Positions 1,290 to 29,570 of a stretch of DNA of 40,851 nt are shown here, piece after piece. This DNA is from a virus (Duplodnaviria > Heunggongvirae > Uroviricota > Caudoviricetes): the IMG/VR virus record IMGVR_UViG_2541047691_000017. One strand, written 5' to 3'. The translations under genes were made by a program, and so were the position numbers. The notes beneath the pieces are model-generated. The model had not been told where the DNA came from. It did not search any database and was given only the letters and a program-made list of their open reading frames with translations. Position 1 is the stretch's first letter; each line of letters begins with the position of its first letter.

Positions 1290-1772
1290 CTATCTGGTCA
1301 AAGTGTCGTACTGTTTTTCGCAGACTCTTCCGGCTTCGGCTGCCCGGTCAGCATACTCTGCCAGTTGTCTGTTTCTCTCGAGAGATTTGCTGAGCACGTC
1401 GGCAAGCAAAACTCCGGTGTCTGCGGCTGACGACCCAGCGCCGACAATGGCGTTATACTGCCTGAGCTGCTCACGGATGGCAAAGAGTTGTTGCTGCAAC
1501 CGGCCAGCGCTAGCGGCAGCATCAAGAGCATCATTGCGCGCCTGGTCGATCCTCTGCTGAGCTTCACGTTCATTGGTCACTTTCTCCTGTTCGTAGTACT
1601 GACGAACTTTGTCTTCTTCGGCTTTGCTGTCTTCTTCCGCCTGAGCATACCCGGCATCGTACTGGCGACTGCCGTGTATATTCCAGGCAACCACTCCTGA
1701 TATGACCAGAACAGCAAGCACTGCCACGATAAGAAACTGTTTCCAGTATGCTTTTACGAATGCCCAGATCAT
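1290..1772 (-). CDS. Rz: Rz-like i-spanin
   Basis: 160 aa; N-terminal transmembrane helix then coiled-coil periplasmic domain; directly downstream of the endolysin with an ATGA stop/start overlap at 1769-1772. Confidence 0.7.
1298..1534 (-). CDS. Rz1: Rz1-like o-spanin embedded in Rz in another frame
   Basis: ORF lies inside the Rz gene; encodes a signal peptide with lipobox LALAGC followed by a Ser/Pro-containing short mature peptide. Start chosen at the MMLLML methionines; exact start uncertain. Confidence 0.6.
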   Translation of the reverse strand: MMLLMLPLALAGCSNNSLPSVSSSGSITPLSALGRQPQTPEFCLPTCSANLSRETDNWQSMLTGQPKPEESAKNSTTL

Positions 1773-2398
1773 ACCGCCAGCACCTTACTGGCAGTGATGT
1801 ACCGCGCTCGCCGGTCGTCGATGCCGTTCCGGCCACCATTGATAATCAGAGTTACACGTGCAATATCGCCGGTATACTTCATGCATCCTTTGCTGGCGAA
1901 GAACCACGCCGCGCTACGAGCCGCATATTCGTCCTGCGCCAGCAGTTCAGGGCTCTCCAGCAGGTCAACCTTCAGACCGTTTCCGCAATCACGATAGTTA
2001 TTCAAACCGGTAATCTGGATAAGTCCGCGCCCTCGGTAATTCCAGCCATCACCAGGGGCATTGTTCCCCATGCGTTTGCTGTATACCAGATTTGCGATCG
2101 CGCGCTGGCGCTCAAGTGGCAATGGTGGTTCACCAGCACGGCGCCCCAGTGCATTAGCCTGCCCCTGAGTGAGACGCCCAGCCCGAACGAAGTTAGCCAG
2201 TCCGCTGACACTGTAGTTGAAATTCTCCTGCAACCTGGTGAAGCCCCCAGACTCATGCCCGACTTGAGCAATAAACATTGCCTGATCTTCTGCTTTGCTG
2301 ATACCAAACTCTTTCATCGCAGAAGTTATATGCGAGAACCAGCGTGCGGCCAGTGCCTCGCTGATACCAGCAGCTCGCTGGAATTGTTTAATCTCCAT
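1769..2398 (-). CDS. Endolysin, glycoside hydrolase family 19 (chitinase-like) type
   Basis: Start placed at internal ATG (MEIKQFQ..., codon 2396-2398) rather than the upstream read-through; motifs [12 protein letters not shown] and GRGLIQITG... resemble GH19 phage endolysins (from memory); sits in the lysis cassette. Confidence 0.8.
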
Positions 2399-2696
2399 GT
2401 TTAGACCTCGATACTTTAAAAATTTGAACGACGTTACCGCGCGTTTTAATAACCGCAGCCAGCATGACAGCGTTGATAATGACCTCAGATAAATCCACAG
2501 CCATTGGCGTACGTAACCAGATTGCATAGGCGACTCGAACAGGAATACTGGCCGCAGCAACAATCAGGAAATAAGCAAGCCATCCTCCCCACCTTCGATG
2601 TTGAGAGCCGTTACGCCGGAATGTGACAACGCGAATTGCTATGCCAGTGCAAATAACTGCATTAGTGATAAGCAAAAAAAACTCATGCGTTACCAT
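2388..2696 (-). CDS. Holin-like small membrane protein (second of pair)
   Basis: 102 aa with 2-3 hydrophobic helices; immediately upstream of the endolysin; overlaps the preceding membrane-protein gene by 14 nt. Confidence 0.5.
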
Positions 2697-3087
2697 CGTC
2701 TTTTCTCCCCGGAATTAACTCGCGTGGATTATCGGAACGGTGATAGAGCCATATACCAATACGCACAGCGACAATTGCTGACACGAATGCGCCTGCAGAG
2801 AAAACAATCCCTTTTTCAAAAGAGTCCTGCGTGATGGTAGGGATCAGGCTGGCTATGCCGATAAGAATTGATGCTGCTGGTTTGTAAAAGAGAAGGCCGC
2901 AAAGAAAGCTGAGCATCGACAGGAGCACCCGGCGACGGATGGGGTACTCTACTGCAGAGGTAACAAAAATTACCGCCCCAGCCAAAGCCCCTAAAGCAAC
3001 CTCCGGAGGGACACCTGCAATAACTGCAGCAAGAGAACCAAAACTAAGCAACTGATTTAATTGCTCACTTGTTACTTGAGCAGACAT
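2683..3087 (-). CDS. Holin-like membrane protein (first of pair)
   Basis: 134 aa, several hydrophobic helices; RBS AGGAG before ATG at 3085-3087; first gene of the lysis cassette. Confidence 0.5.
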   Translation of the reverse strand: MSAQVTSEQLNQLLSFGSLAAVIAGVPPEVALGALAGAVIFVTSAVEYPIRRRVLLSMLSFLCGLLFYKPAASILIGIASLIPTITQDSFEKGIVFSAGAFVSAIVAVRIGIWLYHRSDNPRELIPGRKDDGNA

Positions 3088-3367: not shown

Positions 3368-3394
3368 CCCGCAATATTTTGCGGGCTTTTTTTT
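3368..3394 (+). terminator. Plus-strand intrinsic terminator abutting the tailspike stop codon
   Basis: Stem CCCGCAA/TTGCGGG, loop TATT, then T8; the U-tract is on the plus strand only, so it is not a canonical terminator for the minus-strand tailspike. Confidence 0.4.
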
Positions 3395-6300
3395 AACGTT
3401 CTTCCAGAGACTGAACCCGCTCTTTTATCTTATCCATTTCTCTGCGCTGCCATGCTGCCTCGATATAGAATAAGAGATCAGGTCTGACCCCCCATCTAGA
3501 TCCTGCTGGCGTTATTTCAACGCGCTCAATGATGTCTTCTATTACCATCACTGGATTATCATCCTCATCAACAATGATGCTCCCGTCATTATCAGTCAGC
3601 GGCATTTCCCTTTGGCCAGTAATGACGTCATCATATACTGCGGGATAATCGTCATAGCAAAGAAAGGCATAGCGGCATGTTGTGCTTTCTTCTTCCATGA
3701 GTCCGTGAGAAATAAGAACATCACGAAGTTGCTGCGCGATTACACCATGATGTATCCTCGCCCCTTCTTCCCCCTTTATAGCGACAGCGTTCAGCCATTT
3801 ATAAGCGATATACCTGACGTCACCCCAGGCATCCAGCAATGCTTCGTCAGGAGAGACCGGCTCTGTCTTTAATGTTCCGTCACTGGTAACCACAGGATTG
3901 GAGCCAAGATAAACTGTCGAGAACCTGTTTCCCGGACCACCAAGAGCATTTACATTATCAAGATAAGGTTTAACATCTCCGTTCTCAAAAAGATGTTCGA
4001 GTGCGTTATATACCGCGCGACGTGGAGTACTGCTTCCGGAACCATGCAACGTTATCATTGCACCATCTGCTGAAGACGTTGTTTCACCGCCGCTAACGAT
4101 TAATCTCTGAGCGGTAACATCATCAGACGGTACTTTCTTCGCAATAATGGCGTAATTACCCTCAAGTTTGACTTCCGCGCGAACTTGTCCTGATGTACCT
4201 GCATGGACAGTCAGTGACTGGACGGCAACATCATCTGTGAAATCAACGGGTACAGGAACCGTCCTCACGCCTGACGTCGACATAAAAGTAGGAAGCGTTC
4301 TGTTAGGAGTGGCTCCGTAGACAAAATCCCTTGAAACAAATTCTTCCTGTTTAATTTTCACCCTGAAACAATACAAATCAGCCGGGTGACCATCGTGAAC
4401 ATAAGGATATTTTCTGTTGTTATCCCCTATGCTCCATGGGTTTAGAAAGTCTTCCCCACCGAAAATGTAGTACAGCCAGTTGTCTTTGATACAAACTGAA
4501 CCAACACCAACCGCAGAGTTAACTATTCCGCCCTGATAAATCTGATCAGTAACATTAACCCACTCTACATTATCCAGACTCCACTCATTGACGTTAACTC
4601 TGGTCATAAATGTTCTTGGATAATTTCCTGCATAACGGTTATCAGGTTCTCCTCCTTCCCACTCACCAAATGCGCGCTCACTGCCAAAAATAATCAGCTC
4701 ATCGCCAACTTTGGCAAAAGGAAGGTTTGAGTGATGAACATTATTTGGGAAGCGAAGAGAATTCCATGATGTACCTAAATCAGAGCTTCTGTGCAATGAA
4801 CTACCGGGTTGAGTACTTAATGTCCCCCTGGTCGTCAGATACAGAATGCCATCATAATATTTTACACATGGCTCAGATGCATTCGCCTCATATTCTGCAG
4901 GTATGCGTCTGCGAACAAAGCTACCAGGAGAACCGAAAGCATCAGAGAAATAGAGTATCCCAAGCTCGCGTGGACCAATATCACCATTATGGTAGCCAAC
5001 AGCAAAACTGTTATCGCTAATCGTCGCAAAACTGTGAATCTCAGTAACAGGAGTGCTTCCGTCAACAAAAGAAGGAATAGTTCCAAGACTGGTTTTTCTC
5101 CATGGTGACGAGTGAAATGATGTACCAAAACTCCAGTATCTACCCTCGTTATTCTGATCCACATCCTGGGTATTTTGCGTCGTAACTGTAAAAGTATTTT
5201 TATCAATAACAGTAGTCACCGTCATATTCCCGGTAACACCTGTAACACCAGAGTTTGAGAAGTTGACAAAATCACCAGCAAATAATCCGTGATCAGTAAT
5301 GCGAATATAAGCGACTTGCTGATTTGCTGCTTTCGTTATACCACCATAAACGCGAAGGCTGCGACTCATTGGGCGATCCCACAACTCTGCAACCTGCAGT
5401 TTATTTCCGCTCACGGTCCGCGTCTCAATTACAGCAAAAAGGCGATTTCTGACAACCCCCATACTCATGCAGTGATAGTTAACTGTGGGATAGTTTTCAT
5501 GTAAATCTGTAAGCCATTCCGGCGTTGTCCAGGTCTTCCCGTCATCTCCTGAGCGAACCCATGCAACATGGAGGTTATTTACACCATGGCGGTCTCCAGC
5601 CATAAAAGGCGCATAGATGACATTGTCATATACAAACGTTTTATCCTGCGTCCAGGCGTTGTACCACGGTGTATCTGTAATTTTAAATAACTCTCCCTGG
5701 ATAAAATCTTCAGAAGCATAAAAAAGAGGCTGGCCCGGTATTCTCTCAAATAAAAAACGAGCATTTTTAAATCGACTGACATCCGGAAGAGTTGATACTT
5801 TAAAAGTAAGCCCTAATCCGTCAATTTTATAACCTGGAGATGAGGCTTCAAGGCACGCGCTTATTGCAGTGGAATCGTCATTTATACCATCACCAACAGC
5901 TCCAAAATCTTTGGGGCTAATAGCATCACGCATTTTATCCTGGAACGTTCGGTACACAGCCCCAGAACCATACTGAATAAACCAACCAAAACCACCAACA
6001 ACCCCGGAGATTGCAGCATCGACATAATTACGCATTGAGCGATTATTTACAGCGTCCTGCTCAAATGATGGATCTGCAAGGTTAGAAATTTTGTTTTGCT
6101 TTGCATCGTAATATTTTGCAAGCAAAGATGGTTTCATCAATGCACGTCTGAACCACCCAAAACATTGCTGGATCAGCATCGTCAGGTAGTCAAAGGCATC
6201 TTCATGCACTTCGGGGAAAAATTTTCCCTGATTGCGAAGGTCTGTCTCCTGCACTACATCAAGCACACGATCTATCGTAATTCGCCATCCAGTAGCAAGC

Positions 6301-6512
6301 GGAGACGGAAGAACCACAGAACCGCCACTATAAGTGCCCGCCCCAGTTACCGTATAACCGGTATCCAGAACCAATTCTGTTACGTTTCCGTTCAGGTCAG
6401 ACACCTGAACAACCAGGTCTGATTTTCTGAAAACTCGAAAAGTATACGGAAACGATGTCGTAACGCCGTTACCGGTGTATTCGTTGTGGTCAACTTCGGT
6501 TGAGACCGTCAT
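3393..6512 (-). CDS. Tailspike/tail fiber: T7 gp17-like N-terminal adaptor, central domain with two Asp-box motifs, C-terminal intramolecular-chaperone (peptidase S74-like) domain
   Basis: 1039 aa. N-terminus (NEYTGNGVTTSFPYTFRVF...VVQV...LVLDTGYTV) fits the T7-type tail fiber adaptor pattern. Asp boxes SGDDGKTW (5529..5552) and SSDLGTSW (4764..4787) checked against the DNA. C-terminal roughly 160 aa resemble the autocleaving chaperone of endosialidase-type tailspikes, candidate cleavage near VVTS/DGTLK. All from memory. Confidence 0.85.
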   Translation of the reverse strand: MTVSTEVDHNEYTGNGVTTSFPYTFRVFRKSDLVVQVSDLNGNVTELVLDTGYTVTGAGTYSGGSVVLPSPLATGWRITIDRVLDVVQETDLRNQGKFFPEVHEDAFDYLTMLIQQCFGWFRRALMKPSLLAKYYDAKQNKISNLADPSFEQDAVNNRSMRNYVDAAISGVVGGFGWFIQYGSGAVYRTFQDKMRDAISPKDFGAVGDGINDDSTAISACLEASSPGYKIDGLGLTFKVSTLPDVSRFKNARFLFERIPGQPLFYASEDFIQGELFKITDTPWYNAWTQDKTFVYDNVIYAPFMAGDRHGVNNLHVAWVRSGDDGKTWTTPEWLTDLHENYPTVNYHCMSMGVVRNRLFAVIETRTVSGNKLQVAELWDRPMSRSLRVYGGITKAANQQVAYIRITDHGLFAGDFVNFSNSGVTGVTGNMTVTTVIDKNTFTVTTQNTQDVDQNNEGRYWSFGTSFHSSPWRKTSLGTIPSFVDGSTPVTEIHSFATISDNSFAVGYHNGDIGPRELGILYFSDAFGSPGSFVRRRIPAEYEANASEPCVKYYDGILYLTTRGTLSTQPGSSLHRSSDLGTSWNSLRFPNNVHHSNLPFAKVGDELIIFGSERAFGEWEGGEPDNRYAGNYPRTFMTRVNVNEWSLDNVEWVNVTDQIYQGGIVNSAVGVGSVCIKDNWLYYIFGGEDFLNPWSIGDNNRKYPYVHDGHPADLYCFRVKIKQEEFVSRDFVYGATPNRTLPTFMSTSGVRTVPVPVDFTDDVAVQSLTVHAGTSGQVRAEVKLEGNYAIIAKKVPSDDVTAQRLIVSGGETTSSADGAMITLHGSGSSTPRRAVYNALEHLFENGDVKPYLDNVNALGGPGNRFSTVYLGSNPVVTSDGTLKTEPVSPDEALLDAWGDVRYIAYKWLNAVAIKGEEGARIHHGVIAQQLRDVLISHGLMEEESTTCRYAFLCYDDYPAVYDDVITGQREMPLTDNDGSIIVDEDDNPVMVIEDIIERVEITPAGSRWGVRPDLLFYIEAAWQRREMDKIKERVQSLEER

Positions 6513-8040: not shown

Positions 8041-8250
8041 ATGGGATTTTGGTTCGCTCGTACAAAAACGAGGGATAATGCACCCAGCCCTCAGGCAAAA
8101 AATGCAGAAGTTCCGGCGTCAGCGCAGGTTAACAAGCGTGGTGGAGTATATATCTCATCACAGCAAATTTCTGAGCTTCCTGAGGTTAAGGAGATGCGTC
8201 GTCTCGCTGCTGCAATTGTTAAACAGGATCTTGCCACTGTAAGGAAATAG
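8041..8250 (+). CDS. Small hydrophilic protein of unknown function, first gene of accessory cassette
   Basis: 69 aa; strong RBS (AGGAGG) before ATG 8041; stop TAG overlaps the GTG start of the next gene (TAGTG). Confidence 0.55.
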   Translation: MGFWFARTKTRDNAPSPQAKNAEVPASAQVNKRGGVYISSQQISELPEVKEMRRLAAAIVKQDLATVRK

Positions 8251-9116
8251 TGTTGTTAGCTCTTCTAATTATCCCCATTCTGGTTAGTGGTTATATTATG
8301 ATAACCGCTAACCAGTATCATTATTTCCGTTTATACCGACATGAAGGCCAGCTTCTTTATATGAAAGTAGCTGCATTAGGTACATATTGCCTTGTTGCAT
8401 CAGTAATAATTGCAGCCGCTATAAAATATAAATGGCCTGATTTTCACCTAGTTCACGATATGGTGGAAACTTTTAATGTAACATCAAAACCAGAAACAGA
8501 TAGAATTTACATGTGGCTGCTTCTTCTCTCAGCCACATCCATTTGCTTCTCTTTGTGTTATGTGTCTGTTGTGTGGGTGAAAGATTTTCTTCTTGGTTGT
8601 TTTTATAAACGTGATATTTACGAGCAAAAAACAGAGGCAATGAAGGCCAGAGTACTGCGAAAAACTTACTCGCAAGGTTCTTTAGACTTACTATTGCTTG
8701 ATGCTATTGAATCGGATCCTAAACGACCAATGTTGATTACTTTATCATCAAACAAAGTGTATGTTGGAATAATAAATGGTTCTGGTGAACCAACGGAAAA
8801 TCAGGGTCCGCATCAGCACATATCTTTTGTTCCTTTAATGTCAGGATACAGGAACAAAGAAAACTTATCTGTCACATTCACTAATGCTTATCCAGGAGAA
8901 ATACAGGTCAAGCGGACTGCAGCAATAAGAGGAATTAGCAGAAAGAAAGTGCTAGGACTTGAGATCATGGTGTCTATTGACGAAATAAGTTATATATCAT
9001 GGTTTGATTTTGAAGTATATAAAGCAACAAATAACAAAGTAGAATCCAGGGGGCACGTTATTCGTGTTACCAAAAATGGAAGAAATATATATCAAAGAAA
9101 TAGCAAAAAAGAATAG
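8250..9116 (+). CDS. Membrane-anchored protein of unknown function (three predicted N-terminal TM helices, about 170-aa soluble C-terminal domain)
   Basis: 288 aa; GTG start with AAGGA RBS 5-6 nt upstream, translationally coupled to 8041..8250; markedly AT-rich relative to neighbours; followed by a strong terminator. Confidence 0.6.
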   Translation: MLLALLIIPILVSGYIMITANQYHYFRLYRHEGQLLYMKVAALGTYCLVASVIIAAAIKYKWPDFHLVHDMVETFNVTSKPETDRIYMWLLLLSATSICFSLCYVSVVWVKDFLLGCFYKRDIYEQKTEAMKARVLRKTYSQGSLDLLLLDAIESDPKRPMLITLSSNKVYVGIINGSGEPTENQGPHQHISFVPLMSGYRNKENLSVTFTNAYPGEIQVKRTAAIRGISRKKVLGLEIMVSIDEISYISWFDFEVYKATNNKVESRGHVIRVTKNGRNIYQRNSKKE

Positions 9117-9136
9117 CCCGCGCTGCGGGCTTTTTT
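9116..9136 (+). terminator. Strong rho-independent terminator after the accessory cassette
   Basis: Stem GCCCGC/GCGGGC with 3-nt loop, then T6, immediately after stop codon 9114-9116. Confidence 0.75.
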
Positions 9137-9208
9137 GTGGACGAAACAAAAGTCAGTGCTACACTCATTGACGCCACATTGAGGTGGCTTATAGATGGAA
9201 ATGTCACA

Positions 9209-9370
9209 ATGAAAAAAGCATTTGCTGCACTGTTCGTTTTGTTGTCTCTGGTAGCTTCAACTCAGGCCTTTGCCGGTCGTTGTCAGCACGACAGCGACAC
9301 TGCTGCTGACGGCTCACGCTGCGGTGGGCGTTCTGCGGATTCCCGCCCAGGCGGCGGTGGCATTCGTTAA
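9209..9370 (+). CDS. Small secreted Cys-containing protein (53 aa)
   Basis: ATG 9209 gives MKKAFAALFVLLSLVASTQAFA signal peptide then a Gly/Ser/Asp-rich 31-aa mature peptide with Cys residues; the longer six-frame ORF start at 9137 lacks support. Confidence 0.4.
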   Translation: MKKAFAALFVLLSLVASTQAFAGRCQHDSDTAADGSRCGGRSADSRPGGGGIR

Positions 9371-9393
9371 AAACAAGGCCGCGAAAGCGGCCT

Positions 9394-9405
9394 GTGACAT
9401 GTCAC
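9394..9405. repeat. Palindrome GTGACATGTCAC, copy 1 of 3
   Basis: Perfect 12-bp palindrome; its TCA is the stop codon (reverse strand TGA) of the 9402..9698 gene; preceded by hairpin GGCCGC-GAAA-GCGGCC. Confidence 0.7.
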
Positions 9406-9698
9406 GTCCCTTTTCTGAATGATAGCCATTCGAAAAATGATGACATTCCACCGCAGACAATAGCAAAGATGATCCCACCAAAGAAGAGAAGGCCAGCCTG
9501 CCACCACTCCCACCGCCATACATCCACAGCGCCAACCATACCAACAATCGCTCCAACAAATGGAATATAGCTCACGATGAAAGCAATGGGGGCTGCAATT
9601 ATCCAGTGCAATCCCCACCATGATTCAAGCCCAGCCATAATTGCTGCCAACTGAAAAAGACCAACGACGATATAAACAATGAATCCTATAGCTTGCAT
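9402..9698 (-). CDS. Small inner-membrane protein (3 TM helices), unknown function
   Basis: Start at ATG 9696-9698 with RBS AGGTGA; about 98 aa, almost entirely hydrophobic helices; convergent with the 9209 gene. Confidence 0.5.
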   Translation of the reverse strand: MQAIGFIVYIVVGLFQLAAIMAGLESWWGLHWIIAAPIAFIVSYIPFVGAIVGMVGAVDVWRWEWWQAGLLFFGGIIFAIVCGGMSSFFEWLSFRKGT

Positions 9699-9894
9699 GT
9701 AGTCACCTAATTTACCCAGTAAAAATAAGAGGCCTCCCCTCAATAAGGCTTGCAACAAGAACTACTCCCTGCACAACAAAGATGAACCAGCAAATAGCTT
9801 GAGTCTGAGGGTTAAGAAAATATTTGTAGCGGTCAATAAATAACAATCCACCAGAAATTATCACACTCAAAATAATTAAAAACACAACACTTCC

Positions 9895-12369
9895 TTATTG
9901 CGGAGTGACATCCTGTGGTCGCCACCAGTATGTCTGGTTAAACTCTTTCTTCGAACGTTGCTCCATTTTACGCAAATAACCTGGTGAAAAATACTCCTGC
10001 ATCTGGTTAAAGATCATGTGATCGAGAGCCGCCTTTAAGTACCAGAGATTCGCACCTGGCATCAGACCTTTCCCCAGCTTAACCAGATCACCACCAGTCT
10101 GCTCATTCTTCCCTTCCACAGCATTTAACGGTATGCCCTGAGCAATCTTCACTACGTCATCAACCAGACCAGCTACCGGGCCAAGCATCGACGCCAGCGC
10201 GCCGCTTCCGTACCTAGTGTGATCTGACAATAAAAAGTCACCGTAAAGGCCAAGACCACCACCTTTCAGTAGAGCACCAAGCCAAAATTTAGCAGCATCT
10301 TCTCCTGTCATCTCGCGAGGATTACGACCAGACGCAAGGTCGTTAAGTTGCTGCGACAAAGCGCCAAGAATGGTCGTACTGGCAATAAACGTCGCAATAT
10401 ATGCCGCACGCCCACCAGCCGACGGCATACCCATAGCGCGTGACCAGTGACGCATAACCACCGAGATAGGGAACGATTTAAACAGGAAAACACTTCTCGT
10501 TAATTCACCTTTCCATGTTCCACGCTGAATACCAGAACCGGTTATCAGTTGCTCACGTGCACCCGGTGTAATAACAGCCATATCAACTTCTTCAGTTACG
10601 GCACCGAGCAGTTTACGCATTGCCTCAAATTTCACGCGTTCAGGCTCACCAAGATGTTTAACTGCTGAATCAGGGATACGCATAATGCTTTCCGGTGTCA
10701 GCATCGTATTATTACCGTTCCCCCAGTCCTCCTGTTGCGCCAGCTTCCATACGCTCCAGTCTGTGTCAGTAATCCCTTTGCTTTTCAGGATACGAAAATC
10801 AGAATCATCGAGGCTACGAAGGTCTGGTGTCCGTGACACTACTTCTCCCAGGCTTCCCATCATGGTTACGCCATAGGCGCGCTTGTGCGCATCTGACCAT
10901 GCTGTAAGCCCACTGGCACGCATTACCACCGTTGCAGCCCAACGAGACACAGACGGCCCCATATTATCCATCGCCCAGCGGTTAACGCTGCCAAGTAGAG
11001 ATTCCATCGCCAGACCAGCGCGGCGCGCCCGCGCAAGTTCTGTACGGTTCGTTGGGTCCATAGCTTCAAGCTGGTTGCGGAATAACTGGTTCATTGGAAG
11101 GTTGGTAACCTTCGCAGACAGATACATGGTTCCAAGATCAGAGAACGATGACAGCAACGCGGATCCGAGTCTGCTGGCAACCAGCCAGTTGCGGATATTG
11201 TCAGACCATCGCGCGATGTGCGGATTCGCTACAGGCTGTGTCTTTCCGGAAATAAAGTTGTACAGATTCTCTGTGTTGTTCGCCAGCCGCTCGACTTTAC
11301 CGGTTTTACTCGGGTTAGCTGTTGCCGTTTCTGCCTTCACCTGATCAAGAAGAGAGCGGAAAACATGATCGGGGTTTGGGCCATATGTTTCCACCAGTGC
11401 AATATCTTTACTGATACCTTCCAGGTGACCGACCATGATTTCCCATAGAGAGCGATCGCCATAAAGTTGCTGATATTGCAGATAGGAATCTGCATCTTTG
11501 AAATGTATCTGTCGTGATGCATTACCCCGGTTAGCACGTGCGCCGGAAATTCGCATTCCGGTATCAGTAAGCTTATTCAGCCCACCAGTAGCGATCGTGT
11601 TATAAGCCTCTCCAAGAAATGCAGACAACTCGGCATCGTTCATCAGTTGTCCATCGACTCGGGTATAATATTTGCGATCCAGCTTACCTATAACATCGCT
11701 AACCCACTTATCCTTTGATACCGCCCCAACCTTTTCCATAGAATGATGTTGAGGGAGCCCCCAGTTTTCGAGATAGCCAATGTCCCCACCAGCATCATTA
11801 AACCGGCGGCGCAGTAGCTCTGTCACTTCTCTCCACGCCTTAGCACCTTTTCTTGCTTTAGCATTGCCAGTATTTTGCCCTCGCATTTCATATACCAGGT
11901 CACGCACGCCAGCTTCATCTTCAAACAGGCCAAAAAAGCGAGGATCAACTGCTTCAAATGCCTCCTGCAATTGACTCAATGCATAATCACGAGTGGCTTT
12001 TGTTCTGGATTCAACAGAGAGGAAATTCGATTTACCGTCTGCATTAAAAGCAATAGTACGGTTAAGAGCGCCAAGTTTCCCATCAGCCCCTTGATAGCTA
12101 TTGATAAATTTATCCAATCTCTGACGTGCGGCTATAGTGAGGGCCACACGACGTTTCTTTAATGCCGCTTCTCGCTGTAATTCTTCAGATGCCAATTGTG
12201 CTGCTCGATATAGCCGCTCTGATTCGGAAAGTTGTCGCCACGACATAGGGTCATCACGAGCAATGGAGCGCATATTTCGATAAATGCGGTCTTCAATGTT
12301 CTGTATTTCTCGCGCCGTTAACATGCGCTGCGCCGCCTGCTGAACCGCTTGTATACATTCCTGTCTCAT
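9895..12369 (-). CDS. Internal virion (ejection/core) protein, large
   Basis: 824 aa; last of a run of large co-oriented genes after the tail tubular genes, as with podovirus internal core proteins; no specific motif recognised. Confidence 0.55.
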   Translation of the reverse strand: MRQECIQAVQQAAQRMLTAREIQNIEDRIYRNMRSIARDDPMSWRQLSESERLYRAAQLASEELQREAALKKRRVALTIAARQRLDKFINSYQGADGKLGALNRTIAFNADGKSNFLSVESRTKATRDYALSQLQEAFEAVDPRFFGLFEDEAGVRDLVYEMRGQNTGNAKARKGAKAWREVTELLRRRFNDAGGDIGYLENWGLPQHHSMEKVGAVSKDKWVSDVIGKLDRKYYTRVDGQLMNDAELSAFLGEAYNTIATGGLNKLTDTGMRISGARANRGNASRQIHFKDADSYLQYQQLYGDRSLWEIMVGHLEGISKDIALVETYGPNPDHVFRSLLDQVKAETATANPSKTGKVERLANNTENLYNFISGKTQPVANPHIARWSDNIRNWLVASRLGSALLSSFSDLGTMYLSAKVTNLPMNQLFRNQLEAMDPTNRTELARARRAGLAMESLLGSVNRWAMDNMGPSVSRWAATVVMRASGLTAWSDAHKRAYGVTMMGSLGEVVSRTPDLRSLDDSDFRILKSKGITDTDWSVWKLAQQEDWGNGNNTMLTPESIMRIPDSAVKHLGEPERVKFEAMRKLLGAVTEEVDMAVITPGAREQLITGSGIQRGTWKGELTRSVFLFKSFPISVVMRHWSRAMGMPSAGGRAAYIATFIASTTILGALSQQLNDLASGRNPREMTGEDAAKFWLGALLKGGGLGLYGDFLLSDHTRYGSGALASMLGPVAGLVDDVVKIAQGIPLNAVEGKNEQTGGDLVKLGKGLMPGANLWYLKAALDHMIFNQMQEYFSPGYLRKMEQRSKKEFNQTYWWRPQDVTPQ

Positions 12370-23683: not shown

Positions 23684-23976
23684 TCCTGTTCACTGGCCTC
23701 TTTGGCCATCTTCAAATACTGTTCAGGGCAATGCGCCATAACGCGCTGAAACAGTTCCAGCGCCAGATTGCGTTGCCCCTCATTAAATGCCATTGCCATA
23801 GCATCCATCGGAGAGATAGCGGAAAACACCCGGCCTTTCTCCAGCACCGACCAGACAACGCGACGCCCCTGTTCACTGCTCATGACAAAGCGAATGTCAT
23901 CAATTTCACGCTGTGCCATGTCACGTTGCTTACGGGCGTTTTCTTCTTTCAGTTGATCGTCTTCGTAATCTGTCAT
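23680..23976 (-). CDS. Hypothetical small protein between portal and scaffold
   Basis: 98 aa; overlapping stop/start with both neighbours. Confidence 0.4.
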   Translation of the reverse strand: MTDYEDDQLKEENARKQRDMAQREIDDIRFVMSSEQGRRVVWSVLEKGRVFSAISPMDAMAMAFNEGQRNLALELFQRVMAHCPEQYLKMAKEASEQE

Positions 23977-26579: not shown

Positions 26580-26951
26580 ATGAGTGACAAAGACATTGAA
26601 TCTGAAATTCAGGCTAAAGGTTTAGCCGCGCCGCGCGTTACGCCAGACCATATCGAGAGCATTATTGCTCAGGAGGCATATTTCACAGCAGAAGATGGTG
26701 TCTTTGGCGTGGCCATAAAAGCGAAACATACTGGCGGAGAGGTAAACTACCAGCCGAACGAATCACTTTCTCTGCTGACGTTCTGCGTTCTGGTGCTGCG
26801 CAACGGCTTCACCGTCACCGGAGAGAGCGCCTGTGCAAGCCCAGAAAACTTTGATGCGGAAATTGGTCGGAAGATTGCCCGGCAGAATGCTGTAAACAAA
26901 ATCTGGATGCTTGAAGGTTACTTGCTGAAGCAGAAGTTAAGCGAGCAATAA
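26580..26951 (+). CDS. Gp49-like phage protein of unknown function
   Basis: 123 aa; RBS AAGGTGAG; resembles the small Gp49-like family seen as accessory genes in enterobacterial phages (memory only). Confidence 0.5.
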   Translation: MSDKDIESEIQAKGLAAPRVTPDHIESIIAQEAYFTAEDGVFGVAIKAKHTGGEVNYQPNESLSLLTFCVLVLRNGFTVTGESACASPENFDAEIGRKIARQNAVNKIWMLEGYLLKQKLSEQ

Positions 26952-26955
26952 CACC

Positions 26956-26967
26956 GTGACATGTCAC
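26956..26967. repeat. Palindrome GTGACATGTCAC, copy 2 of 3 (14-mer CGTGACATGTCACA)
   Basis: Perfect palindrome 5 nt after the stop of the 26580 gene; same 14-mer as at 29220..29233. Confidence 0.7.
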
Positions 26968-29220: not shown

Positions 29221-29232
29221 GTGACATGTCAC
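29221..29232. repeat. Palindrome GTGACATGTCAC, copy 3 of 3 (14-mer CGTGACATGTCACA)
   Basis: Perfect palindrome; its TCA (29229-29231) is the stop codon of the 29229..29570 gene. Confidence 0.7.
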
Positions 29233-29570
29233 ACTATTAATTTCGTTTCATGCCAGCCTTTAGTCACCCAGCATTGCGAGTCACCATCACACGGGCATGA
29301 ATTCACAGGAACTCTCTCGCCGCACTTACCGCAACGTTTTCTGCTGATCGATTTTATACGCCCGTGCACGCGTGCATCATCCTGGCGGATCAGTAACGCT
29401 ATATACTCACCAAATTCGTAAGGCGCACGCCCGGGGCGACGCGTGGCACAGTTACGCTCCAGCATTTCAATTTCCTGAGCATCAAGCACAATTTCCAGCT
29501 TACGCACACCAGATGCAGCTTGTCTGGCTCTCTGAGCGGCTTTGCGCTCTGCTGCTGATTTAGCCATCAA
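29229..29570 (-). CDS. Small basic protein with Cys-rich C-terminus (possible zinc-binding regulator)
   Basis: 113 aa; N-terminus Lys/Arg/Ala-rich; C-terminal C-x2-C-x9-C-x-C arrangement (RCGKCGERVPVNSCPCDGDSQCW); last gene before the terminase genes. Confidence 0.45.
   Translation of the reverse strand: MMAKSAAERKAAQRARQAASGVRKLEIVLDAQEIEMLERNCATRRPGRAPYEFGEYIALLIRQDDARVHGRIKSISRKRCGKCGERVPVNSCPCDGDSQCWVTKGWHETKLIV

Follow-up and report, generated by a model that had tools for sequence, protein, structure and literature searches.

Predicted small envelope proteins encoded at the 3′ end of the virion/ejection operon in an epsilon15-like prophage of Escherichia coli

Small phage envelope proteins such as Sp and Imm of T4 and Sim of P1 block genome entry after adsorption. 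In phage P22, sieA and immI are kept in the stretch that leads from the ejection genes to the tailspike gene, and sieA lies directly after gene 16, on the opposite strand (convergent) and with its own promoter. SieA is a 162–164-amino-acid (aa) protein of the inner membrane with three helices and a conserved cytoplasmic motif, FxRYPxEAxxFNK, near its C-terminus, and it acts on the ejection proteins gp16 and gp20 (PMC10883804). Here we examined the equivalent region in a 40,851-nucleotide (nt) stretch of Caudoviricetes DNA (IMG/VR record IMGVR_UViG_2541047691_000017), the whole of which is referred to as the window. The DNA around the locus is 98–99% identical to the E. coli Uetakevirus phages and prophages phiv142-3 and HEMP4, and partly to phiV10; the window is an epsilon15/phiV10-like (Uetakevirus) E. 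coli prophage and is K1-specific. Our reading is that three accessory genes, each independent of the others and coding for a small envelope protein, lie where this region closes the virion/ejection operon on its 3′ side, and that they do not form a two-component system. The first encodes a 53-aa precursor of an exported peptide, while the other two encode membrane proteins of 98 and 57 aa. The features of the locus are as follows.

9115–9137, plus strand: strong intrinsic terminator, AGCCCGCGCTGCGGGCT and then TTTTTT (stem 9115–9131), which ends the unit of a 288-aa gene and insulates the peptide gene
9138–9196, plus strand: region that comprises the leader of the peptide gene and two candidate promoters (P1 and P2)
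9209–9370, plus strand: peptide gene, 53-aa precursor (RefSeq WP_000708858.1), with the predicted signal peptide in codons 1–22 (9209–9274)
9376–9393, minus strand: GC-rich hairpin, GGCCGC-GAAA-GCGGCC at 9377–9392, −15 to −17 kcal/mol
9394–9405, no strand assigned: palindrome GTGACATGTCAC; it overlaps the 98-aa gene at its TGA stop
9402–9698, minus strand: gene of the predicted 98-aa inner-membrane protein, ATG start, Shine-Dalgarno sequence AGGTGA at 9703–9708
9712–9885, minus strand: 57-aa open reading frame (ORF) for a predicted two-helix membrane protein, GTG start, Shine-Dalgarno sequence GGAAG, between the genes of an 824-aa virion protein and the 98-aa protein

Independence of the genes and their likeness to described systems

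The peptide and 98-aa genes are found on opposite strands, in separate transcription units, and each of them is common without the other. The peptide gene is present in 429 of 5426 complete E. coli genomes and the membrane-protein gene in 216, and in 144 both are present side by side; from these counts, about 285 genomes have the peptide gene with no adjacent membrane-protein gene, and about 72 show the reverse. When 40 fetched loci were scanned with hidden Markov models, the two genes were detected together only in close enterobacterial relatives, and one alone was present elsewhere. The peptide gene stands by itself in TL-2011b, IHE3034, Klebsiella locus L008, Pectobacterium and Mesorhizobium, and the membrane-protein gene does so in E2865, YDC107_2, Yersinia, Salmonella and Alphaproteobacteria. 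This distribution contradicts the initial annotation of the locus where it had proposed a secreted factor with a membrane partner.

The same annotation had placed the membrane protein in the slot of sieA. The locus is indeed an accessory region between ejection and tailspike genes, and the 98-aa protein, like SieA, is predicted to be a three-helix inner-membrane protein encoded beside the last ejection gene before the tailspike. On the other hand, the protein is much shorter than SieA, the FxRYPxEAxxFNK motif is absent from its family alignment (the C-terminus reads ...SSFFEWLSFRKGT), and its gene reads in the same direction as the ejection genes and is preceded by neither a promoter nor a terminator, an orientation and promoter arrangement unlike those of sieA. 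Judged by its sequence, the 98-aa protein is not a member of the SieA family. Similarity to SieA was also tried by aligning P22 SieA to the 30-sequence family alignment with hhalign, and was rejected (probability of 0.2%, 4 aligned columns). By orientation and autonomy, it is the peptide gene that would be the closer positional analogue of sieA.

The peptide gene also resembles lambda-type morons such as bor and lom in that it is a unit of putative promoter, ORF and terminator placed between phage genes, with deviant base composition and varied neighbours. It differs from them in showing no sequence relation, and in that its product is predicted to be a soluble periplasmic peptide of 31 aa and not a lipoprotein or an outer-membrane barrel. 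The likeness to Sp, Imm and Sim is conceptual only, in that the proposed mechanism is the same, and no match to their families was found in Pfam or PHROGs.

The exported peptide and its cassette

The precursor consists of MKKAFAALFVLLSLVASTQAFA before and GRCQHDSDTAADGSRCGGRSADSRPGGGGIR after the predicted cleavage point, and its N-terminus has the features of a Sec-type signal peptide with an AxA signal peptidase I site. It reads MKK, AFAALFVLLSLVAS and TQAFA, with cleavage predicted before the following G, which corresponds to a KK n-region, a hydrophobic core and an A-F-A cleavage motif, with no lipobox. In most family members a Cys is found at +3, not at +1, so that those members have no lipobox either. 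The mature part has 31 aa, is hydrophilic and includes Cys25 and Cys38. In an AlphaFold2 model of the peptide, residues 2–23 form a helix that is followed by coil, with one bridge for the mature part. Because of this signal-peptidase-I-type N-terminus and the coil after the helix, the database name "transmembrane anchored protein" is probably wrong, and a cleaved soluble periplasmic peptide is more likely. The peptide would be exported by the Sec pathway, cut by signal peptidase I and oxidised to a single disulfide loop in the periplasm, and its own promoter would drive its synthesis in the lysogen.

The mature core is nearly invariant (C-x-H-x3-D-x-A-x-DGSRCG-x-R-x2-D-x-R-x-GG), and the signal peptide varies freely. 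Twelve residues separate the cysteines (C-QHDSDTAADGSR-C), and the loop comprises a His, three Asp and the two Cys. Comparison of the 25-codon core among Escherichia, Klebsiella, Pectobacterium and Cronobacter gave a proportion of synonymous differences (pS) of 0.5–0.8, at which synonymous sites are saturated, with hardly any amino-acid change, the ratio of nonsynonymous to synonymous rates (dN/dS) being ~0–0.04. As pS is high while the amino acids are almost fixed, the constraint acts on the protein rather than on DNA or RNA. The peptide ORF is a real gene under strong purifying selection, and the Cys-containing, putatively exported peptide of the initial annotation was upheld.

Full-length profile matches to the peptide were found in PHROGs (phrog_14503, E = 2.3e-40; phrog_3117, E = 4.1e-36), of which the former carries only the label "membrane associated protein" and neither has an assigned function. 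No informative match was detected in Pfam (E ≤ 1), NCBIfam or PADLOC-DB (E ≤ 1), and there was no relative in PDB. A literature search with the name of the peptide and with its sequence motif returned nothing, a paper on ZX5 was uninformative, and the papers on phiv142-3 do not deal with orf11 or orf12 of that phage.

Two candidate promoters precede the gene. P1 consists of TGGACG (9138–9143), 16 nt and TGcTACACT (9157–9165), while P2, the one noticed in the initial annotation, consists of TTGACG (9168–9173), 16 nt and TATAGA (9190–9195). The TTGACG hexamer of P2 is present as claimed; however, a consensus promoter scan flagged neither candidate, and the −10 element which is conserved in position in the Klebsiella, Cronobacter and Pectobacterium homologues is that of P1. 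A small stem (GCCAC/GTGGC, 9173–9188) is also seen between the candidate promoter elements. Four enterobacterial genera keep it with different loops, and Pectobacterium shows a single compensatory change in it (CCGC/GCGG); the mRNA may thus have a stem-loop at its 5′ end.

The GC content of the peptide gene is 0.57 vs 0.31–0.40 in its flanks. The identical cassette is located behind a YafO toxin gene in TL-2011b, behind a 210-aa gene in IHE3034 and behind the 288-aa gene in the window, and the upstream terminator has been kept together with it in TL-2011b and IHE3034 despite the different upstream genes. From this arrangement of terminator, promoter-like region, ORF and hairpin, the peptide gene appears to behave as a self-contained accessory unit (moron). 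Of the peptide gene, phiV10 (locus L002, 4000–4056) has kept no more than the final codons (...GGGGIR stop), which are joined to the hairpin with the palindrome. This remnant of a deletion shows that phiV10 once had the cassette.

A first homology search with the peptide returned 57 clusters, all from Enterobacterales. A profile search then gave 742 matches at E ≤ 10, with Mesorhizobium and Methylobacterium among them, nearly all of 48–56 aa; the best 120 of the 742 were listed, and all of these had E < 1e-14. The family comprises more than 700 sequence clusters from Alpha- and Gammaproteobacteria and has no Pfam family. The peptides of the window and of Mesorhizobium share 22 of the 25 core residues.

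About seven prophage settings were counted in which the peptide gene neighbours the tailspike region and the last gene for an internal or ejected virion protein. In epsilon15-like prophages from E. coli (the window) and from Klebsiella, it adjoins the last ejected-protein gene, before the tailspike region, and it is found in the position after the ejection genes in three Cronobacter loci with two different ejection-gene sets. It is next to the last ejected-protein gene in a Mesorhizobium prophage, beside the gene of a DUF919 protein in the K1 prophage of IHE3034, and beside the gene of a polyvalent LPD22/ART internal protein (>2197 aa) in another prophage. In Pectobacterium, a MuF_C protein gene is on one side of it and another late gene on the other. 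In a Methylobacterium prophage (locus L041, 5850–5999), a second exported-peptide gene was observed directly 5′ of the peptide homologue, so that the two mini-proteins are encoded in tandem; this second peptide has 49 aa, a signal peptide followed by RGRTGSHRVGGTNSHGKGSHYYGGR, and is rich in Gly, His and Arg.

Membrane proteins and the end of the late operon

The end coordinate of the initial annotation, 9758, belongs to the TTG start of a longer, 118-aa ORF. The gene is real, and RefSeq and all homologues start it at MQAIG, which gives 98 aa (9402–9698), and none of them uses the TTG. That the product is a three-helix inner-membrane protein agrees with the prediction. The AlphaFold2 model, built from 30 sequences, has a mean confidence score (pLDDT) of 91 and shows helices at 2–28, 32–59 and 65–97, joined by Trp-rich interfacial loops, with the middle helix kinked at the invariant Pro46. 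Hydropathy agrees with three helices, and in 40 members the C-terminal tail has a net charge of +2.2, while both loops are acidic; three spans with this charge bias predict an N-out, C-in topology. The dN/dS of the gene is 0.027.

Profile matching assigned the full length of the protein to phrog_3075 (E = 1.6e-54), a family with no assigned function. No informative family was found in Pfam, NCBIfam or PADLOC-DB (none at E ≤ 1 in the last), and fold and PDB searches found nothing. Thus, the earlier statement that neither protein is recognisable was borne out, as profile searches of Pfam, NCBIfam, PADLOC and PHROGs were uninformative on the function of both. An exhaustive profile search gave 745 clusters at E ≤ 0.001, mostly of ~100 aa. 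In some distant relatives the domain is fused to RDD, DUF805 or MORN modules, which gave no functional clue.

Four further prophage lineages have a gene of this family directly 3′ of the final ejection-protein gene and on its strand; the gap is 1 nt in Cronobacter and 35 nt in a Salmonella prophage with a T7-like terminase. In a distant Pseudomonadota prophage from a metagenome-assembled genome, a family member abuts a gp17-like gene in convergent orientation. On the 3′ side of the alphaproteobacterial homologues we observed, on the same strand, a gene for a membrane protein of ~100 aa. It was confirmed by Pfam as DUF6804 in locus L028 (6308–6646) and locus L032 (6302–6622), and a similar-looking gene is present in locus L030 (6304–6594). 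This suggests that the 98-aa homologue and the DUF6804 gene form a conserved two-gene membrane module outside phages. The literature search returned nothing on DUF6804.

The promoter scan detected no promoter-like site 5′ of the 98-aa gene. A hairpin at 9726–9742, which as a terminator would have separated the 98-aa gene from the 57-aa ORF, was rejected as unstable (z = +1). With neither a promoter-like site nor a stable hairpin on its 5′ side, the simplest assumption is that the late transcript serves the 98-aa gene. Both membrane proteins, of 98 and 57 aa, would then be translated from the end of that transcript and inserted in the inner membrane.

The 57-aa ORF, which begins 9 nt past the stop of the 824-aa gene, is unannotated in RefSeq and had not been noticed in the initial annotation. 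It is probably a real small gene, as judged from a full-length homologue in Klebsiella ATCC 13883 (79% identity, dN/dS of 0.19); in Cronobacter it is truncated to 38 aa. Its product had no match in PADLOC-DB at E ≤ 1.

In relatives, the slot after the last ejection gene is occupied by small membrane proteins that are unrelated to each other, namely epsilon15 gp18, phiV10 gp21 and a 66-aa protein in Cronobacter, and at least four unrelated types were counted in this slot. In epsilon15-like phages, a small membrane protein of one kind or another is always encoded in the post-ejection-gene slot. In the slot that they share with the 98-aa protein, gp18 (64 aa) and gp21 (46 aa) come right after the gp17/gp20-type gene and are followed by the identical palindrome and terminator; the gp18 gene overlaps the gp17 stop. 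However, gp18 and gp21 have two helices each, compared with three in the 98-aa protein, and their sequences are unrelated to it.

The initial annotation had described the peptide and membrane-protein genes as converging across the hairpin and one copy of the palindrome. Both elements are present there, but they end the late operon in general. The T-run of the hairpin is on the minus strand (TGTTTTTA, 9375–9368), and therefore termination of the late operon is its primary role, its head-on sharing with the peptide gene being secondary. Regardless of which gene is last, the late operons of epsilon15 and phiV10 and of the Klebsiella and Cronobacter prophages are closed by the palindrome, the GC hairpin and the T-run. 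One copy of the palindrome per locus was found in 16/16 fetched loci (Escherichia, Salmonella epsilon15, Klebsiella and Cronobacter), and wherever its position was examined, it was at the end of the late operon (for example, 9518–9529 in locus L025 and 4045–4056 in phiV10). Hairpin and palindrome are thus a conserved late-operon terminator module of this phage group and are not particular to the two genes.

Three exact copies of the palindrome are present in the window, where 0.09 would be expected. In addition to the one at 9394–9405, a copy at 26956–26967 comes after a 123-aa ORF (26580–26951) and just before another terminator, while a phrog_536 "transcriptional regulator" gene (29229–29570), immediately 5′ of the small terminase gene, has a copy at its stop (29221–29232). 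A fourth copy, at 23913–23924, has one mismatch. The palindrome marks module boundaries, and it may be a protein-binding site coupled to termination or a recombination boundary.

The order of genes in annotated relatives is three large internal virion/ejection genes, a short variable region, the tailspike gene, and then two holin genes with a GH19 endolysin gene. The large internal virion proteins of the window have 862, 600 and 824 aa, and the 862-aa protein has transglycosylase-type PHROG matches. The main genes around the locus are the following.

9895–12369, minus strand: 824-aa virion (ejection) protein like epsilon15 gp17 and phiV10 gp20 (phrog_684, virion structural protein), encoded by the final large late-operon gene
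3393–6512, minus strand: K1 endosialidase tailspike with End_N_terminal, beta-propeller, beta-barrel, tail-spike and S74 chaperone domains
1769–3087: complete lysis cassette (Phage_holin_8, Phage_holin_3_7 and GH19 endolysin), ~6 kb from the 98-aa gene and past the tailspike gene

Since the K1 endosialidase tailspike is complete, the prophage is that of a K1-capsule-specific epsilon15-like phage. An Rfam scan of positions 8900–10000 gave nothing above threshold. The 288-aa gene (8250–9116, plus strand), 5′ of the peptide cassette, has a low GC content (0.31–0.40), and related prophages swap it for other cargo, either the YafO toxin gene or the 210-aa gene. Its product belongs to phrog_3630, with no function attached; its N-terminus has hydrophobic segments resembling membrane helices, and it showed no match in PADLOC (E ≤ 1), Pfam or NCBIfam and no similarity to P22 SieA or SieB.

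Possible functions of the envelope genes

The reading that we place first, although tentatively, is that of three separate envelope genes, each of which may hinder the delivery of DNA by incoming short-tailed phages (superinfection exclusion). They would act separately, with the periplasm as the site of the peptide and the inner membrane as that of the two membrane proteins. Exclusion was ranked first because of the recurrent neighbourhood of ejection genes and the precedent of P22, both of which concern position only. A bolder form of it, which we consider unlikely, is that the peptides are an undescribed, very widespread class of disulfide-looped periplasmic mini-proteins of ~28–31 aa, which temperate short-tailed phages carry beside their ejection genes to block the periplasmic genome delivery of rivals. 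Their target might be a conserved part of the ejection conduit, its transglycosylase or a conserved envelope factor of the host.

Several points weigh against exclusion. As far as sequence comparison can tell, there is no homology to exclusion proteins, neither to SieA nor to those in PADLOC, Pfam and NCBIfam. Position is weak evidence because the region from the ejection genes to the tailspike is a general hot spot of accessory genes. Both families also have members outside prophages, which favours a general envelope function over a phage-directed one. For the peptide, these are in core chromosomes, in the bacA/ffh and greA/carB intervals. For the 98-aa family, they are found in Microvirga, Ensifer and an uncultured alphaproteobacterium, and the alphaproteobacterial gene adjoins mutS or a resolvase gene and is usually followed by the DUF6804 gene. 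Moreover, exclusion would be poorly served by a gene that is expressed solely at the late stage of an infection. Finally, the phiv142-3 equivalents, orf11 and orf12, were not among its serum-up-regulated genes.

The alternative that survives best, a real possibility even if we would not expect it, is that the peptide is a host-fitness (lysogenic conversion) factor carried as prophage cargo, which would bind a metal in the periplasm or inhibit a cell-wall enzyme through its Cys-closed, His/Asp-rich loop. The homologues in core chromosomes are in line with this, as are the residues of the loop. The similarity of the core between Gamma- and Alphaproteobacteria (22/25 with Mesorhizobium) fits a conserved host target or metal site, and the Methylobacterium prophage with its adjacent exported Gly/His-rich peptide gene points the same way. 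Ivy, a periplasmic inhibitor of lysozyme and lytic transglycosylases with a disulfide-closed CKPHDC loop, is a lead in this respect. The peptide, like Ivy, would have a periplasmic disulfide loop with His and Asp, the mature peptide has C-Q-H-D, and the 862-aa protein of an incoming phage would bring a transglycosylase-type domain; however, the inter-Cys loop of Ivy has 4 residues, and that of the peptide, with 12, is three times as long, whereas in overall size the peptide is five-fold smaller. On the other side, the peptide had no Pfam match at E ≤ 1 to Ivy, Excalibur or metal-binding families and no PDB relative, and generic cargo need not be beside ejection genes, as the peptide gene is in about seven prophage settings.

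For the 98-aa protein and the other membrane proteins of the slot, it is quite unlikely that they serve the late programme of the phage itself, either protecting the membrane of the producing cell from newly made ejection proteins, which are membrane-active, or helping to store these for packaging. Such a role would account for the tight same-strand linkage to the last ejection gene in several lineages (gaps of 1–35 nt), for the overlap of gp18 with the gp17 stop, for the at least four unrelated protein types in one slot and for a 98-aa gene without its own promoter. It is opposed by the family members outside prophages, which have no ejection genes nearby, by the convergent orientation relative to the gp17-like gene in one distant prophage, and by the many related prophages that lack the 98-aa gene (in IHE3034 and TL-2011b a different gene comes directly after the peptide gene).

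A holin, an antiholin or a lysis-timing protein would also be small, and the 98-aa protein has three predicted membrane helices, a basic C-terminal tail, predicted late expression and a weak Pfam match to Phage_holin_5_2 (Hol44; E = 0.027). We regard this role as highly improbable, since the match reached 15.2 bits vs a gathering cut-off of 29.2 and was seen in just 1/40 family members, the prophage already has its complete lysis cassette, the gene was never beside an endolysin gene in the loci examined, and some homologues are chromosomal and outside prophages. Apart from this sub-threshold match, profile searches for homology to structural or lysis proteins, which the initial annotation had named as the result that would speak against its proposal, found none for either protein. 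The remaining idea, that the peptide functions in a pair with the 98-aa protein, such as ligand and receptor or toxin and immunity protein, is hardly credible in spite of their adjacency and convergence in the 144 E. coli genomes, Cronobacter and Klebsiella ATCC 13883, and as an obligate pair it is rejected because each gene is widespread without the other and they belong to different transcription units.

The peptide and 98-aa genes are already catalogued, as hypothetical proteins and as PHROGs without function, and on the sequence comparisons made here the small envelope proteins have no resemblance to any known exclusion or lysis protein. The analysis corrects the annotation in three places: the start of the 98-aa gene, the unannotated 57-aa gene and the name "transmembrane anchored protein" of the peptide. 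Among complete E. coli genomes, ~8% carry the peptide gene, K1 extraintestinal and avian pathogenic strains included, and ~4% carry the membrane-protein gene. If exclusion is the correct reading, the peptide would be a minimal, broadly acting exclusion peptide. With 31 residues that can be synthesised, a core that is near-invariant from E. coli to Mesorhizobium and a recurrent place beside the ejection genes of unrelated short-tailed prophages, it is a cheap and well-defined candidate exclusion or envelope factor, and this ultra-conserved peptide family is the part of the locus most deserving of experiment.

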